12,971 bases of DNA, taken from positions 1-12,971 of IMG/VR virus record IMGVR_UViG_2547132278_000011; one strand, 5' to 3'. The notes beneath the pieces were generated by a model. The model had not been told where the DNA came from. It ran no database searches and was given only the letters and a program-made list of their open reading frames with translations. This document shows positions 3,445-12,971 of the stretch, piece by piece. Numbering within the stretch: the first letter of the stretch is position 1; each line of letters begins with the position of its first letter. Source of the stretch: a virus (lineage: Duplodnaviria; Heunggongvirae; Uroviricota; Caudoviricetes). The translations under genes were made by a program, and so were the position numbers.

Positions 3445-5139
3445 TTAATTATTAAGCAATCTGCTCACACGTAGTTTGTTAAGACTTGATCTAGAGGCCA
3501 GTTTCGTTAATGCACCTATTGCTTTATTCGTGATTTTTTGCTGTTCTTCTGTTAGTTCTTGCATACTTTTGAATCTGAGCAACCCCTTTCTCACTAAATC
3601 CAAAGCATCCTGATTGCGGGATAATATCCACTTTAAATAATCATCTTCAGAGAAACTGTTAAGATATGCTATGTCACTATGATTAAATTTGCCTTCAATT
3701 ATTTTGTATAAAACATTCTCTAAATTAGTCTCTTCAGGCTTCTTATCCATCAATTTTTTTTGAATTAGCAGACCTAACTTTTCGTTACCAAATATCTCTA
3801 CATACAAATTCCGAAAAGCAGTATAAGCATCATCTTGGCTAACAAAGGCATCTGCATATGCCTCTATATAACTATCACAATCAATCTCCAATCTATTTAA
3901 GATATCAATCAAGCCTATGAAGTGAGCAACAGGTATGTGTGAAAGATTGTCGTTAATTACACATTTTATCTTAGAAATAAACTCAGATTCATTGTCCTTG
4001 AATGAGTCACTAAAAATATCCCAAACATTGTTAACCTCACATAAAGCCTTGTGTTCTTTATATTGTTTATTTTTTTCTTCTATTATACCTCGAATATTGC
4101 TTTCAGTAGAAAGATAACCATTCTTGAGATAAAAATCTATGTCATCATCGAAAGCAATTTCCGCTCGTTCATAAATAATATCAAGACTATTAATAAATGA
4201 ATATACAGAATCATCCTTTTTATCATCTAACATGTAATCAAATACATGTATGTTTTTAATTGATTCTTTAAACAAGGCATAATCAACACCTGGAACACCA
4301 GAATAGTAAACCACTGAAAACAGAACCAATCTATTGATAAAACTTTCTCTAACCTTATCCTCTGCCAAGCTTAGCTCATTCCTAAGATTAACCAGAGATG
4401 TTTTTATTTTATTTAATATACGGATATTTTTAATGCCTAAGTCATTTGCTAAGACTTTTAACAAAAGAAAATCAGAATCAGTTTCATAAAAAACTTTACG
4501 TAAGTTCTTCTCAGGCGTAGGATCGTATTTTATTTCGACATCAATTACTTTTTCTCTGTACTCTAAAAACTGTTTTTTTGCAGTTTCATCATGTAAATTA
4601 TCTTCATTTAAAATTAGAACAACTTTGCAACCTTTTCTTCTTGCTAATTCATCAATTACCCCCATAATTTCTTTAACTTCTAGCGAATTACCTTTTCTTT
4701 CAACATCATCAATACAAACCAAATAATTATTAACAAATTTATACTCAAGAGATGACAGCAGGTTATCTGTTTTGAACCCAAAAAAATCGTTCTTTCCGAA
4801 ATGTATTAAAAATTTTGACAAGGAGTTGTATTTCAACCATCCCCAAAACCCATTTCTATAACGAATCATAGTTCGATCCGTTTCAGATAAAATTAGTTCT
4901 TTATATTTCTTTTCATTAATTGGTGTGGCACAATGATAAAGAGTTTTTTTAATATCACCAATAGAGTTAACCCCAAACAAAGAAACATACGAATATGCAT
5001 TAAAATCTAATCCTTCAGAATGCTTAGTATAAAAACTATTCCAATAATGAGTTTTACCAACGCCCCAATCTCCTTTTATGACGGCAACCCGATGATCTGA
5101 AACTAGAAAATTTTTTAGAAATGATTCTATCGATTCCAT
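3445..5139 (-). CDS. KAP-like P-loop NTPase, soluble, with a ~370-aa C-terminal helical domain of unknown function; candidate horizontally acquired defence/abortive-infection gene
   Basis: 564 aa from the ATG at 5139 (the ORF-track start at 5148 is TTG). Walker A VIKGDWGVGKTHYW (KAP-type G-x-WG-x-GKT), Walker B-like LVCIDDVERK, then VVLILNED. No hydrophobic transmembrane helices between Walker A and B. Sampled 60-nt lines give 23-25% G+C (for example 4381-4440 = 14/60) against about 53% in the neighbouring parA region (5701-5760 = 32/60). Confidence 0.65.
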   Translation of the reverse strand: MESIESFLKNFLVSDHRVAVIKGDWGVGKTHYWNSFYTKHSEGLDFNAYSYVSLFGVNSIGDIKKTLYHCATPINEKKYKELILSETDRTMIRYRNGFWGWLKYNSLSKFLIHFGKNDFFGFKTDNLLSSLEYKFVNNYLVCIDDVERKGNSLEVKEIMGVIDELARRKGCKVVLILNEDNLHDETAKKQFLEYREKVIDVEIKYDPTPEKNLRKVFYETDSDFLLLKVLANDLGIKNIRILNKIKTSLVNLRNELSLAEDKVRESFINRLVLFSVVYYSGVPGVDYALFKESIKNIHVFDYMLDDKKDDSVYSFINSLDIIYERAEIAFDDDIDFYLKNGYLSTESNIRGIIEEKNKQYKEHKALCEVNNVWDIFSDSFKDNESEFISKIKCVINDNLSHIPVAHFIGLIDILNRLEIDCDSYIEAYADAFVSQDDAYTAFRNLYVEIFGNEKLGLLIQKKLMDKKPEETNLENVLYKIIEGKFNHSDIAYLNSFSEDDYLKWILSRNQDALDLVRKGLLRFKSMQELTEEQQKITNKAIGALTKLASRSSLNKLRVSRLLNN

Positions 5140-5160
5140 TAGTATCAATCCTTTAATTCA

Positions 5161-7739: not shown

Positions 7740-7967
7740 TCAGTTCAGGTGCCCCCACTCACACAGCCTTTCACCTATCGTATTGTGGATAAGCAACTGT
7801 CGCTCCGTTTCCTCAGTCATAAAATCCTCTCTACTCACATAAATAGGATTTGCAGCATCGCAGAATAGCACGCCTGGAGCCTGCGTCTTAATCACGCACC
7901 CATTTATCAAACAGCTCGCGATGAACACCAGAGGCATCTTTTTGCCGCACTTCATTAACCGTTTCAT
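7740..7967 (-). CDS. Putative o-spanin-like outer-membrane lipoprotein (Rz1-like), overlapping the 3' end of the upstream gene in a different frame
   Basis: From the internal ATG at 7965-7967: MKRLMKCGKKMPLVFIASC... gives a basic n-region, a short hydrophobic core and a lipobox-like IASC. The mature part carries extra Cys residues. Overlaps 7888-7967 of the i-spanin-like gene out of frame. Start uncertain (ATGs also at 7976, 7955, 7937). Confidence 0.4.
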   Translation of the reverse strand: MKRLMKCGKKMPLVFIASCLINGCVIKTQAPGVLFCDAANPIYVSREDFMTEETERQLLIHNTIGERLCEWGHLN

Positions 7968-8139
7968 TTTTGACATCCACTGTGCTTTGAAGTCGTTTTC
8001 TGTCTTCCTGTTTTGCCTTCTCTTCCATTGCTCGTCGCGCCGCATTCCCGCCCATCGTGTAAGCGCCGACAAGAACGAAAAGAACGGCAGCCAGCGTAAT
8101 CAAAGCAACTTTTAGCTTTGTCATCAGGCTGCCTAGCAT
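7888..8139 (-). CDS. Putative i-spanin-like protein (Rz-like): N-terminal transmembrane anchor plus charged helical periplasmic region
   Basis: 83 aa. N-terminal hydrophobic helix LKVALITLAAVLFVLVGAY followed by a highly charged segment (RRAMEEKAKQEDRKRLQ...). ATG 1 nt after the stop of the upstream gene (TAATATG). A nested out-of-frame lipoprotein ORF is typical of overlapped spanin pairs. Confidence 0.45.
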   Translation of the reverse strand: MLGSLMTKLKVALITLAAVLFVLVGAYTMGGNAARRAMEEKAKQEDRKRLQSTVDVKNETVNEVRQKDASGVHRELFDKWVRD

Positions 8140-8846: not shown

Positions 8847-9170
8847 TTATTGCAGTCCACTTTTTACGCCATACGCGGCTAACCCCAAAAGCAGTGCGGT
8901 AATAATGAACGACGTTATTTTAGAAACAATGCCGCCAAAGAACCCACTTGAGATGGAATCTAACCGGTTAAGGAGTTTGTCCAGATTGGAGTGTTGAATA
9001 CTATGTTGCGCCGGGGTCATATCACCAAAGTAGGTTTTCAGCTGATCATTGACCTCCTGGCCAATTTCTTCACGTAGCTCTTTACCTAATTTGCCAACAA
9101 CCTCCCGAGCAACGATCGCGGCAATACGCTCAACTTGCTCTGTTGTAACGCCCGCCATCTCGTTCGACAT
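8847..9170 (-). CDS. Small tail-anchored membrane protein (possible holin/antiholin-like), function unknown
   Basis: 107 aa from the ATG at 9168-9170 (GGAGG 6 nt upstream; the ORF-track start at 9182 lacks an SD). Soluble charged N-terminal ~85 aa, then a single C-terminal TM helix ITSFIITALLLGLAAYGV. Its stop is 13 nt before the next gene's start. Confidence 0.45.
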   Translation of the reverse strand: MSNEMAGVTTEQVERIAAIVAREVVGKLGKELREEIGQEVNDQLKTYFGDMTPAQHSIQHSNLDKLLNRLDSISSGFFGGIVSKITSFIITALLLGLAAYGVKSGLQ

Positions 9171-9251
9171 GTTTTCCTCCATGAAAAGTCAAATCGGGAT
9201 GGCGGATTTATATCACATTTCACCCTTTTGTTGTAGGTGTGTACTTACCTA

Positions 9252-9485
9252 TCATTCAGCATTGCAACCGATTGATGAGAAAGCACCTACTCCAACCCAT
9301 CGCCAGTTATAGATGCTACCCGCTTTGTATAAGGTATAGTCGTTCACTTTTTTAACAGCATATATGGGTATGACTGTCTCCTGTCCACCAATGATAGCTT
9401 CACCATAACATATAGGTGTCGGCAATTTCTGGCAGCCAGTAAGAGAGAGAACAACAGCTATTGTTAGAAATAATCTTTTCATCAT
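9252..9485 (-). CDS. Small secreted lipoprotein (77-aa precursor); candidate Cor/Llp-like superinfection-exclusion factor
   Basis: MMKRLFLTIAVVLSLTGC has a canonical lipoprotein signal peptide with lipobox LTGC. Small size, and position directly downstream of the tail-fibre/adhesin genes. Starts 7 nt after the stop of the upstream gene. Confidence 0.55.
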   Translation of the reverse strand: MMKRLFLTIAVVLSLTGCQKLPTPICYGEAIIGGQETVIPIYAVKKVNDYTLYKAGSIYNWRWVGVGAFSSIGCNAE

Positions 9486-9492
9486 TTACTCA

Positions 9493-10101
9493 TCAGTTAT
9501 ACAGATTTCTATTTATTACCGGTACTCTGCCATTTACGCTAAAACTATGGCCGCCATTAAGTTGGTTTACGAATATCGAGCTAACAGTATTTCCATATGC
9601 CGCATATCCATAAACCATTGTCATGGCTCCGCCCGGTACTGGAACAGCGAACACATTCGCATATGTTGGGATTATCGCTGGAGGGTAATCAAAAACATGC
9701 CCTCCAGAGCTGTTCCACTCCGTATTATTAAGAAAGGTAAATGAAAGTGGGATATTTGCCGTATTATAGATTTCCTCCCCTTGTGCATTGAAAAAACTCA
9801 TGCCCCAAGTTTCTTTTTTGGCTATACCTTTCGAAAATACGTATATCGTGGCACTAGAGTCGCTACCCTGACCTCCGAAACTGTAAATCACCTGGTTGTT
9901 ACGCACTATTCTGTTGGCTATTAATGAAACAGCTTTCGAATAGGCAACAAAAATAATCGGTGAACGATCTGGAGATATTTTGGTGTTAAACTCTGTCCCG
10001 CCGGACAAAGAAACAACCTGCTTTCTCTGAAAAACGATAGGAGACAAAGAAGGAGACATCCAGACCTTCCCGTCAGATCGATATATCTTGCTTCCGTACA
10101 T
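9493..10101 (-). CDS. Gly/Ser/Thr/Asn/Tyr-rich beta-type protein (202 aa), likely tail-fibre-associated (distal adhesin or accessory); function unknown
   Basis: Composition typical of fibre or receptor-binding domains (GGHSFSVNG, VYGYAAYGN). Its ATG overlaps the stop of the upstream 84-aa ORF by one base (TAATG at 10099-10103). Confidence 0.5.
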   Translation of the reverse strand: MYGSKIYRSDGKVWMSPSLSPIVFQRKQVVSLSGGTEFNTKISPDRSPIIFVAYSKAVSLIANRIVRNNQVIYSFGGQGSDSSATIYVFSKGIAKKETWGMSFFNAQGEEIYNTANIPLSFTFLNNTEWNSSGGHVFDYPPAIIPTYANVFAVPVPGGAMTMVYGYAAYGNTVSSIFVNQLNGGHSFSVNGRVPVINRNLYN

Positions 10102-10355
10102 TATTTTTGAAAAACCAATATGTTTAAATTACCACTAGCTCCAGACCACGAAATGGTATTTCCAGAAACCGTAAGACTTGTGTACTTTCCATTGGTTACG
10201 TCCATTATGTAATAGTCGATTCCCAATCCCGCCTCAACCTCATATGTTCTACTTCCTGAACCAGAGGGAGTAAAATAATCGAGGTAATAAACAGGGGCCA
10301 ACGCATTGACCATCTCCTGTCTTGATGGCGACCAAACCTGTGCACCATAGCTCAT
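10101..10355 (-). CDS. Small beta-rich protein (84 aa) coupled to the downstream 202-aa gene; possibly the N-terminal piece of a split or frameshifted fibre-associated gene
   Basis: ATG at 10353-10355 with AAGGA about 8 nt upstream. Gly/Ser/Thr-rich (TPSGSGSRTYEVEAGLGIDYY...SWSGASGNLNI). Ends in the TAATG overlap with the next ORF. Confidence 0.45.
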   Translation of the reverse strand: MSYGAQVWSPSRQEMVNALAPVYYLDYFTPSGSGSRTYEVEAGLGIDYYIMDVTNGKYTSLTVSGNTISWSGASGNLNILVFQK

Positions 10356-10380
10356 AAATATATCCTTATACTTTTAAGCA

Positions 10381-10403
10381 GGGGCTGGTTTAGCTCCAGC
10401 CCC
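10381..10403 (-). other. GC-rich hairpin (8-bp stem ggggctgg/ccagcccc, 7-nt loop) between the tail-fibre stop and the next gene's ribosome-binding site
   Basis: Read directly from the sequence. It is not followed by a U-tract on the minus strand, so it is more likely an RNA stability or processing element or a partial attenuator than a full terminator. Confidence 0.35.
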
Positions 10404-10415
10404 GATTGAAGTTGT

Positions 10416-12971
10416 TTATTCTTTAGGTGAATTTAACTTCGTTTCAAGCTCCTCAACCCTTTTGGTCAATTGCTGAATATGATGAATGAGTGGTACAACC
10501 AAACGCTCATACATCACTCCTTCAGCGACCATACCATTTGAGGAAATATCTTCTGGAGAATCATTATTTGTTGGTTCACGCCAATGGACATATTGCGGGG
10601 CAATCTCACCAACCTCTTCAGCAATAAGGCCGTAATACCCCCAATCCTTTCGGTCACCTCGACAAATTGAACGATACCAAACAGGTCTTAATGACAAAAG
10701 TTCATCAGCATATCGATCTTGTAATGTTTCAATATCCTTTTTATAGCGCCTTGAAGACGTTGAACGCCAAACTGTATTGATACCTGGGTTTGGATCAATG
10801 TACATATTGGCACCGCTAGTAGTTGTGCCAATATCCCATATAGCAAACCCTCCACTACCGCCTGATTTGACAACCAGTGTTTCAGCAACAATATCCAGGT
10901 TGCCACTATAGCCTGTCAGTGATGATCTGCTTGCATAGGAACTTAGAAGGTTTGCTACCTCTGTTTTCGTGTAAGCATTAAGGTTAGCCGCAGTCAAAGT
11001 TATATCGGCAGAGCCATCAAACGCCACACCAGCAATTTTCCTTGCTGTCTGCAATTTTGTGGCGGTTGCGGCATTACCAGTAGTGTTCTGATTACCAGTT
11101 GTATTCACACCAGGGATTGAATCCTTAGCGGTATATACCTGCGCCCACGCTGACCATGCCGCACCTGTGTAATCTCTTCGGGAGCGAATGAAAACCGGCG
11201 CATGTGCACCGCTCGTACCACTCCAGCCAATAAGCAACTCGCCCTCACCAGCAGCACTCGCACCTTTCATGTGCAATACGTTGCCATACGTGGTCGGGTA
11301 GCTATTGTTGTACGCCTCATACATTTGAATGCCAGCAGTGCCTTGAGTAGAGCCGCTTAACGCCGTAACTCGGCCACGAGATACCAATGTATTAATGTTG
11401 ATATCGCCTGAGCCATCAAACTTAACACCATTGATGTTTCTCGCTGTTTGCAACTTCGTAGCTGTTGAAGCATTACCGTTCAAACTACCATTTACGCCAC
11501 CAGTAACATTTAGTCCATTACCAATGGACACAGCACCGCTGGTATTGTTAATTGTAATCGGTCGCAAACCGTTCCATGAACCTAATGTGTCTCCTGATGC
11601 TGTTAGCAGGAAATATGTGTTCGCCCCATCATTACGGATAAAGAACCCAAAGTTACCGTAAGCAATGCGGAAACCATTTGCATATTTTGAAACGATCTCA
11701 CCAGAAGACGTTAACCCTCCAGATAATGTGCCACCTGAAAGCGGTAATGCTCCTACATCAGAAGCTGTTGGTTTGTTTCTGGTGTTATAAGAACGACGCC
11801 AGCCTGGCGCATAATCACTTCCATTGTACACATAAATAAATTCCGCATTATTAACACCACCATGACCCGATGTTGTTGTCGTTGTAACACGAATAGTGTA
11901 ATGGCTTGTTGCCTTATTACTAAACACCTCAATCACGGAACCAGATAGATCGATCCTACCGCAACCAGTGTCGTCTATATAATTATTGTTGGCGTAAGCC
12001 CATGAGCACCGTGCAATCCAATATTTGTTTGAAAATGCACCCTGATTATTTAGCCACGTTATAAACTGAGCAGTCGTAAATGCTGTTCCGTTACCACTAT
12101 TTAACCATCCGGCGGCAGCGGTTGGTGCGTTTATATCAGCCGGCTGAGGCATAAATCCAGTCGTGTAAACCTGCTCCCAACCACTTTCAAAACCATAGCC
12201 ATCTCTTGAGGAACGGTAGAACAGACCACCATTTTTATAGTGAGCTTTAATTTGAAGCGTACGGCAACTACCTACACCGGTATAAAAGTTGGCAAGAATA
12301 TAACTAGCGCCTGCTCTAGTTACATTGTAAGCACCAGATTCAGCATTCCACGGCACGCCACCATCAGCATCCGCATATGACCCTGTTGCCCTTCTTGCGA
12401 AAGCGGCAACATGCGCAGCGGTTAAAGTGATATCAGTAGAACCATCAAATGGAACACCGGATATTTTTCTTGCAGTCTGAAGTTTTGTAGCAGTTGCAGC
12501 ATTACCAGTGGTGTTCTGATTACCCGTAGTGTTTACACCTGGAAGGTTAATATTTGCAGAACCGTCGAAAACAACTCCACCGATAGATCTTGCCGTCTGC
12601 AATTTCGTGGCTGTACTTGCATTACCATTCAATGAACCAGTTAATCCACCTGTAACAGACAACGGACCTGAAACTGTTCCTCCGGTTGTTGGCAGTGCTC
12701 CAATATCTAACGGCGTCGGTTTCTGATGTGTGCTATACATCGTATAAACAACACCATCGGTAACGCTGGAAGGCTTACTCGCTGAATATGTTGGCGAGGT
12801 ATAAATAGAAACTGTCGCATTTGCAGTACAATCCCAATGGATATTTACACGAGTCGCATAATTGCCAATCTCAACGTAAATATCATATGTATCGCCGGAT
12901 GTGTTGATCCAGGCGAAATTCGTTAATCCGACAGCTGTACGCTTCCACAAAGCACCTGTAATCCCTTTGGG
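10416..12971 (-). CDS. Phage tail fibre protein, 5'-partial (N-terminus beyond the window), with repeated tail-fibre motifs and a C-terminal peptidase S74-type intramolecular chaperone domain
   Basis: The frame is open from the window edge; the ORF-track start at 12950 is a TTG artefact. Four copies of the N-A/T-S/A-TATKLQTAR motif, each followed by ...FDGS...; two copies of a larger module PGVNTTGNQNTTGNAATATKLQTARKI-GV-FDGS-DITLTAA. C-terminal SSRRYKKDIETL ... GLIAEEVGEIAP ... VEELETKL matches the conserved Ser/Lys auto-cleavage region of S74 chaperone domains as I recall it. Confidence 0.9.
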   Translation of the reverse strand, partial: PKGITGALWKRTAVGLTNFAWINTSGDTYDIYVEIGNYATRVNIHWDCTANATVSIYTSPTYSASKPSSVTDGVVYTMYSTHQKPTPLDIGALPTTGGTVSGPLSVTGGLTGSLNGNASTATKLQTARSIGGVVFDGSANINLPGVNTTGNQNTTGNAATATKLQTARKISGVPFDGSTDITLTAAHVAAFARRATGSYADADGGVPWNAESGAYNVTRAGASYILANFYTGVGSCRTLQIKAHYKNGGLFYRSSRDGYGFESGWEQVYTTGFMPQPADINAPTAAAGWLNSGNGTAFTTAQFITWLNNQGAFSNKYWIARCSWAYANNNYIDDTGCGRIDLSGSVIEVFSNKATSHYTIRVTTTTTSGHGGVNNAEFIYVYNGSDYAPGWRRSYNTRNKPTASDVGALPLSGGTLSGGLTSSGEIVSKYANGFRIAYGNFGFFIRNDGANTYFLLTASGDTLGSWNGLRPITINNTSGAVSIGNGLNVTGGVNGSLNGNASTATKLQTARNINGVKFDGSGDININTLVSRGRVTALSGSTQGTAGIQMYEAYNNSYPTTYGNVLHMKGASAAGEGELLIGWSGTSGAHAPVFIRSRRDYTGAAWSAWAQVYTAKDSIPGVNTTGNQNTTGNAATATKLQTARKIAGVAFDGSADITLTAANLNAYTKTEVANLLSSYASRSSLTGYSGNLDIVAETLVVKSGGSGGFAIWDIGTTTSGANMYIDPNPGINTVWRSTSSRRYKKDIETLQDRYADELLSLRPVWYRSICRGDRKDWGYYGLIAEEVGEIAPQYVHWREPTNNDSPEDISSNGMVAEGVMYERLVVPLIHHIQQLTKRVEELETKLNSPKE

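Follow-up and report, generated by a model that had tools for sequence, protein, structure and literature searches.

A Cor-family lipoprotein gene in an optional three-gene cassette of an SSU5-like phage-plasmid: a probable exclusion factor acting on the terminal receptor of the phage

The window (the whole 12,971-nt stretch of viral DNA that was analysed) belongs to an SSU5-like E. coli phage-plasmid. Encoded on this DNA are a primase fragment, a DnaB-like helicase, ParA, a holin, an endolysin, a pair of spanins and a tail fibre, and most of its length matches E. coli plasmids about 110 kb in size at 98–99% identity. The genes considered here follow one another along the coding strand in the order lateral tail fibre, an 84-aa gene, a 202-aa gene, cor and holin (Table 1), and the lysis module runs on from the holin to the endolysin and the i-spanin/o-spanin pair. 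An earlier note on this DNA had placed a small lipoprotein gene directly downstream of fibre and putative adhesin genes. The position downstream of the fibre holds; the “adhesin” genes lying in between, however, are homologues of gp22 and gp23 of phage N15 and not demonstrated adhesins.

Table 1. Features of the cor region, in positions of the window
Feature	Position	Strand	Basis or remark
cor, Cor-family exclusion pre-lipoprotein, 77 aa	9252..9485	-	ATG start; stop codon 9252-9254
Signal peptide, residues 1-17, MMKRLFLTIAVVLSLTG	9435..9485	-	read directly from sequence
Lipobox LTGC	9432-9443	-	read from sequence
Mature Cor domain, residues 18-77, predicted small beta-barrel with C26, C74, G56, F69 and NWRW motif	9255..9434	-	
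N15 gp23-like gene, 202 aa, second of the cassette	9493..10101	-	PHROG 425 “membrane associated protein”, E 5.8e-49
N15 gp22-like gene, 84 aa, first of the cassette	10101..10355	-	PHROG 557 “outer membrane protein”, E 2.4e-24
Lateral tail-fibre gene, 5' end beyond the window	10416..12971	-	Pfam, PHROG tail-fibre families, RefSeq annotation; reading frame at 10416-12950
Holin, first lysis-module gene, directly downstream of cor	8847..9182	-	PHROG 5093; holin in Cyrano and SSU5
Spacer, holin start to cor stop	9183..9253	.	last stretch in common with cassette-free relatives

The protein encoded by cor, MMKRLFLTIAVVLSLTGCQKLPTPICYGEAIIGGQETVIPIYAVKKVNDYTLYKAGSIYNWRWVGVGAFSSIGCNAE, was described in the same note as a 77-aa pre-lipoprotein with a textbook LTGC lipobox, and the reading frame, its ATG start and the signal are all confirmed from the sequence. 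A basic n-region (K3, R4) is followed by a 10-residue hydrophobic core and the lipobox L15-T16-G17-C18, whose Cys18 (9432-9434) is predicted to carry the lipid modification and to begin mature Cor. In a six-frame scan of the whole window, which covered 369 start positions in ORFs of at least 35 aa, the strict lipoprotein-signal pattern fitted only the two ATGs of this ORF, at 9485 and 9482. The second ATG is the probable true start, with a product of 76 aa; RefSeq begins the gene there, and the profile of the NCBIfam family NF047972 likewise aligns from residue 2. Pfam recognises on Cor the generic lipid-attachment motif LPAM_1 alone, and weakly (residues 2-19). The residue at +2 after the lipobox Cys is Gln and not Asp (MMKRLFLTIAVVLSLTG followed by CQ), as would be required of a Cor-family signal. 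In E. coli, Asp at +2 retains lipoproteins in the inner membrane (the +2 rule), so Cor with its Gln would be expected to be sorted by Lol to the outer membrane.

Judged by its sequence, the ORF is a clear member of the Cor family. With the NCBIfam equivalog model NF047972, “phage exclusion lipoprotein Cor”, it reaches 80.1 bits, where 31 is the cutoff, residues 2-75 aligning to profile positions 1-77 of 78, and it matches PHROG 1119, “Cor superinfection exclusion protein”, with E 7.8e-30 (residues 2-76 to positions 1-76 of 78). The protein is 59% identical to SSU5_025 of phage SSU5, 47% to the Cor of HK022, 42% to those of phi80 and N15, and 28% to that of T1; the T1 Cor itself is 36–37% identical to its phi80, N15 and HK022 counterparts, below the 42–47% of the window Cor. 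A tblastn search among 50,697 phage records matched 193 of them, all at less than 60% identity. The best match was SSU5_025, annotated “Cor-like” in the GenBank record JQ965645.1, and further matches came from Stx-converting phages (58%), the Cor proteins of lambdoid HK and mEp phages (47%), and phi80 and ES18 (42%), with the Cor proteins of T1-like phages and Dhillonvirus (27–34%) as the weakest groups listed. A 19-member family alignment, which took in the Cor proteins of phi80, T1 and SSU5, has five invariant positions, C18, C26, G56, F69 and C74; all of them are kept in the window protein, as is the aromatic N-W-x-W motif in the form NWRW. An exhaustive HMMER search with Cor gave 20 representatives at E up to 1e-3, and a word-indexed search of a 5.8-billion-protein set returned just four near-identical fragments, a result that is uninformative for so short a protein. 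One of the 20 HMMER representatives, a 1087-aa protein (P0006; E 3.7e-24 over 19 matched stretches), was considered as a possible multi-Cor protein and rejected: it is a 57-aa tandem repeat of low complexity, so that its score is a chance match multiplied by repetition.

The earlier note had proposed a receptor-masking exclusion lipoprotein of the Cor/Llp kind, and the two family models, the 42–47% identity to studied Cor proteins and the Llp-like structural model described below together support that proposal. The comparison with the two named families comes out differently for each: it supports kinship with Cor (phi80, N15 and HK022), but phmmer with Cor against all PDB sequences, the Llp entries 8A60 and 7QJF included, gave no match at E up to 10. 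Kinship to an unrelated housekeeping lipoprotein, which would have spoken against the proposal, was looked for as well; the Pfam, PHROG and NCBIfam searches matched Cor only and no spanin or housekeeping lipoprotein family. None of the PADLOC models matches Cor or the gp22-like and gp23-like proteins. It is worth pointing out that E. coli plasmids in RefSeq carry identical DNA in which PGAP has already named the gene “cor: phage exclusion lipoprotein Cor”; the find is thus correct, but already known.

While sequence searches do not connect Cor with Llp of phage T5, the predicted fold does. An AF2 model of Cor was built from 18 aligned sequences, namely the window protein and 17 homologues (16 from the exhaustive HMMER search and one from the word-indexed search), and has a mean pLDDT of 84.9, with block means of 93–94 over residues 21-70. 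Among 48,164 solved chains, this predicted structure comes closest to T5 Llp (PDB 8A60 chain B and 7QJF), with 11–14% identity in the structural alignment. Foldseek of the model against the PDB gave nothing significant, only generic small barrels with a best E of 0.14; against predicted viral structures, the best matches were a super-infection exclusion protein of Dhillonvirus (E 5.5e-5) and lipoproteins of T5-like phages. Llp has a disulfide between Cys11 and Cys58 in mature numbering (PMC9586334). The invariant C26 and C74 of Cor correspond to mature positions 9 and 57, and from this we infer an equivalent C26-C74 disulfide. One difference between the two systems lies next to the lipoprotein gene: T5 has a single receptor-binding protein, pb5, and the window has the gp22-like and gp23-like genes instead.

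These two companion genes have the same order with respect to cor in phi80, T1, N15 and SSU5, so the synteny of the three-gene cassette is preserved in the window. Their sequences tell a different story. The gp22-like protein is 68% identical to SSU5_023 and the gp23-like protein 76% to SSU5_024; against the alleles of phi80, N15 and T1, the figures are 27–28% and 21–26%, respectively. Since the phi80, N15 and T1 alleles are 52–76% identical among themselves, across unrelated phages, the window companions at 21–28% form a separate allele class, and the closeness to the T1, phi80 and N15 gp22/gp23 that marks FhuA-linked alleles is not seen. Outside the SSU5 group, the gp23-like protein has its nearest relatives in Drexlerviridae, with about 30% identity in phages like tonijn and tiwna, which we take to be Tempevirinae, and in 933W-type Stx phages (24%). 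No signal peptide and no transmembrane segment were noted when the two companion sequences were read, and the hydrophobicity of both is low (the maximum index of the gp23-like protein is 1.70), so they are not expected in the same compartment as Cor. PDB sequence searches with both proteins gave nothing meaningful, and an alignment of four sequences yielded only a poor structural model of the gp23-like protein (mean pLDDT 29.8). The gp23-like protein may be regarded as a candidate tail-tip receptor-binding protein or exclusion partner. [quoted passage not shown]

The gp23-like gene is annotated as 188 aa in RefSeq and in the SSU5 record, as against 202 aa here. The start of the 202-aa form overlaps the preceding stop as ATGA exactly as in phi80, T1 and N15, its first residues MYGSKI are kept in SSU5, and the PHROG profile aligns from residue 1; the annotation thus probably misses the first 14 codons of the gene. 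The GC content is 0.41–0.42 in the cassette, 0.45 in the fibre gene and 0.49 in the lysis genes.

The closest named relatives of this arrangement differ from it in several respects. The Cor proteins of phi80, N15, HK022 and mEp167 belong to the same family, with about 77 aa, a lipobox, the two conserved Cys, G56, F69 and the W-x-W motif, and in phages of the phi80/N15 type cor likewise ends a gp22-like, gp23-like, cor block downstream of the tail genes; N15 is also a phage-plasmid like the window element. In those phages, however, the cassette comes directly after J and not after a lateral tail-fibre gene, and the gap between gp23 and cor is about 110 nt in phi80 and N15, compared with 7 nt in the window. 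In SSU5, the type member of the phage-plasmid group, the order 84-aa gene, 202-aa gene, cor and holin is the same, yet its Cor is only 59% identical, and the two DNAs cease to be alike at the cor stop codon. SSU5 also has an extra gp38-like adhesin gene after the fibre, where the window fibre ends in an S74 chaperone domain instead. The cassettes of T1 (ST30), which is a virulent phage, and of Drexlerviridae and Dhillonvirus phages have the same family and the same three genes and are FhuA-linked in the BASEL collection. A further likeness is found in phage Rtp, where the gene immediately following that of the receptor-binding protein encodes Rtp45 (PDB 9RPS), likewise a small exclusion lipoprotein of the periplasm.

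The lateral fibre is in itself a mosaic of T4 gp34-trimerisation, gp37_C and endosialidase-chaperone domains (Pfam Gp34_trimer, 5.8e-30; gp37_C; Peptidase_S74, 2.8e-06), and the full-length gene, found in plasmid pECAZ162_2, has 3774 nt. With its own C-terminal intramolecular chaperone, this fibre would need no separate assembly or adhesin gene, unlike that of SSU5 with SSU5_022. A different layout is seen in the Stx-type podophage Escherichia phage vB_EcoP_phi367 (locus L007; 5428-6213 and 9454-10355), whose Cor is 58% identical to that of the window. There, cor comes after a gp38-like “tail fiber adhesin” gene, about 3 kb upstream of the phage's own gp22-like/gp23-like pair and lom. The cassette can thus be split, and Cor occurs in short-tailed phages as well.

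Several features bear on how cor is expressed. The gp22-like and gp23-like genes overlap by ATGA, only 7 nt separate the gp23-like stop from the cor start, a consensus scan around cor found no promoter-like site directly upstream of it, and no terminator is predicted between cor and the holin. Taken together, these features suggest that cor, as the last gene of the cassette, is co-transcribed with the fibre and lysis genes. It should be added that the promoter and terminator scan around cor gave no more sites than shuffled sequence did. An independent “moron” transcription unit for cor is not supported, no promoter or terminator of its own having been found; in T5, llp is expressed early from a promoter of its own. 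At 9206-9215 on the minus strand, in the spacer that separates cor from the holin, lies TGATATAAAT, similar to an extended -10 element (TGnTATAAT). This site, which the consensus scan with its requirement for both hexamers did not report, may be a promoter of the lysis genes or may be due to chance.

The cassette is not a fixed part of these phage-plasmids. Of 5,426 complete E. coli genomes, 237 have the lysis module of such a phage-plasmid, in every case on a plasmid, and 67 of these 237 have the window cor allele (at least 95% DNA identity); about 100 of the remaining E. coli plasmid records match just the first 69–71 nt of 9183-10415, the spacer beside the holin. The megablast matches to Cyrano, PhiR41_1 and SSU5 end at window position 9251-9253. 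With presence in 67 of 237 genomes and a break in similarity at the cor stop, the cassette is an accessory, sharply bounded block. Three elements that lack it were inspected (Cyrano, pSCU-306-2 and pTHO-010-2), and in each of them the holin is separated by about 200 nt from a fibre gene of another kind. Over its last 586 residues, the J of Cyrano, which has no cassette, is 99.5% identical to that of a plasmid with one, which is hard to reconcile with the companions being essential receptor-binding proteins of the tip; if the gp22-like and gp23-like proteins are bound at the tip and bind the receptor, phages with the same J manage without them. Among plasmids in general, only those of Escherichia and Shigella carry the window allele, the SSU5-type allele (59%) is found on plasmids of about 110–160 kb in Enterobacter, Citrobacter and Salmonella, and N15-like plasmids have Cor relatives at 36–43%.

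Another part of the window may be variable as well. A KAP-family P-loop NTPase of 567 aa (3445-5148, minus strand; Pfam PF07693), with a match (E 4.8e-22) to PDC-S49, a candidate defence family in PADLOC, lies within a sharp low-GC island (0.28–0.32, as against about 0.47 in the flanks). Related plasmids have other genes in this slot beside parA, which gives it the look of a hotspot for variable accessory or defence genes.

The molecular mechanism of Cor is not yet solved (10.64898/2026.03.26.714494). That of Llp is known, and Cor has been argued to act alike by the Llp paper and by two papers from 2026. The Cor proteins of HK022, N15 and phi80 inactivate FhuA, lower ferrichrome uptake and protect from colicin M (PMC3594210). 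Based on the family membership and the Llp-like model, we adopt the Llp mechanism for the window Cor. The mature domain, a predicted beta-barrel of about 60 residues that is probably clamped by the C26-C74 disulfide, would bind, on its periplasmic face, the outer-membrane protein serving the phage as terminal receptor, and the bound receptor would be locked in a state that an incoming phage cannot use. A cell carrying or producing the phage would then stop adsorbing the same phage, and others that depend on the same receptor, and the cell debris left after lysis would likewise stop adsorbing such phages. The target would most likely be the TonB-dependent transporter FhuA. We consider it likely, on the whole, that cor encodes the exclusion lipoprotein of this SSU5-like phage-plasmid and disables the terminal receptor of the phage, for which FhuA is the most likely identity.

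The choice of receptor deserves a separate discussion. FhuA is the leading candidate, and we are about evenly divided over whether it is the target of this particular Cor. Every Cor tested experimentally targets FhuA (PMC3594210; 10.64898/2026.03.26.714494), and the “extended cor cassette” is known from the FhuA-dependent phages T1, HK022, N15, ES18 and phi80; in the BASEL collection, all 10 phages with the full three-gene cassette use FhuA (PMC13164509). FhuA is favoured for these reasons, and also because the window protein passes the equivalog model, is accompanied by the full cassette and shares 42–47% identity with the phi80, N15 and HK022 proteins, closer to them than the T1 Cor is at 36–37%. 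What keeps the target uncertain is that the companions are only 21–28% identical to the FhuA-linked alleles, that the nearest Cor outside the SSU5 group (58%) is that of an Stx podophage, in which it comes after a different adhesin gene, that there are precedents with BtuB and LptD, and that the receptor cited for SSU5 is the LPS core. Cor- or Llp-like lipoproteins occur in other, BtuB-using phages (PMC13164509), and the analogous lipoprotein Rtp45 blocks LptD (PMC12685063). As for SSU5, the LPS core is the only receptor cited in the literature consulted, which mentions no protein receptor (PMC12312913, citing Kim et al. 2014). In the literature on SSU5-like phage-plasmids, we found neither a protein receptor nor a Cor described in them. 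The suggestion that the lipoprotein could help to identify the receptor is therefore only partly borne out: it does put FhuA first, but the companions are very divergent and the lipoproteins of other phages act elsewhere.

An outer-membrane protein other than FhuA is accordingly a possible, less probable target. The Cor of the window might act by the same periplasmic mechanism on a BtuB-type TonB-dependent transporter or on another outer-membrane protein that is matched to the gp22-like/gp23-like pair, a reading we find doubtful but not far-fetched. Genes downstream of gpJ are probable receptor-binding loci that are encoded together with cognate exclusion proteins, and the alleles at this place match the receptor specificity (Maffei et al., PMC8594841), so companions that are 68–76% identical to SSU5 and just 21–28% to the phi80, N15 and T1 alleles would fit a different receptor, as would the Cor-like proteins in BtuB-using phages and the tonijn, tiwna and 933W-type relatives of the gp23-like protein. 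The same reading has to contend with the uniform record of the tested Cor proteins, the equivalog-level model, the 10 FhuA-using BASEL phages with a full cassette, and a window Cor that is nearer to phi80 Cor than T1 Cor is. Only tentatively, then, would we extend it to the whole block: the SSU5-type cassette may be a plug-in receptor module with its matching exclusion lipoprotein, in which the pair binds an outer-membrane protein other than FhuA, be it a further TonB-dependent transporter or an essential protein, and Cor jams this protein from the periplasm, so that gain or loss of the block, with a near-identical J, would switch both the receptor and the exclusion spectrum.

It could also be asked whether Cor acts alone. 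The three proteins might exclude other phages jointly, as one device; or the two companions might be tail-tip receptor-binding proteins that depend on Cor for their assembly or activity. The linkage of the three genes in phages as unrelated as phi80, SSU5, T1 and N15, their tight packing in the window (the ATGA overlap and the 7 nt before cor) and the gain or loss of the whole block together in SSU5-like plasmids would all suit such a partnership. In T1, however, cor lies on the strand opposite to its two partners, and in phi367 it is about 3 kb away from them, so the partnership is not obligatory at the level of transcription; moreover, the partners have no signal peptide that was noted and would be expected in another compartment than Cor. 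Cloned cor alone is said to exclude in the cases of N15, phi80 and mEp167, in work by Vostrov from 1996 and by Uc-Mass from 2004, which counts against the joint unit as well. We regard a joint unit as improbable. That the cor product is a lipoprotein of lysis or of some unrelated kind (an o-spanin, say, or a housekeeping protein) whose gene merely happens to sit beside the holin can practically be dismissed, even though the holin gene follows immediately on the same strand and no terminator is predicted in between, because the ORF matches Cor only and the window has a separate i-spanin/o-spanin pair at 7740-8139 (PHROG 1026 and 1275); the o-spanin and housekeeping identities were both rejected on these grounds.

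The spanin pair merits a brief description of its own. The i-spanin gene is at 7888-8139 on the minus strand (PHROG 1026), and an out-of-frame overlapping o-spanin ORF lies within 7740-8072 (PHROG 1275). The o-spanin product contains the motifs FIASC and LINGC and is a second lipoprotein of the window, unrelated to Cor.

Lipoproteins of the Cor type make the cell that carries them resistant to every phage that uses the masked receptor. A cell whose FhuA is masked also withstands colicin M and albomycin, but pays for this in ferrichrome uptake. With the allele on phage-plasmids in 67 of the 5,426 complete E. coli genomes, it could affect the host ranges of phages used in therapy and, in isolates from the clinic and from animals, the competition among phages. 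In practical terms the finding is of modest value: it confirms an annotation, and it makes FhuA the first receptor to test for this group of phage-plasmids. It also shows the cassette to be an optional block with companion genes sharply unlike the FhuA-linked alleles, and this unlikeness is the point of remaining interest.
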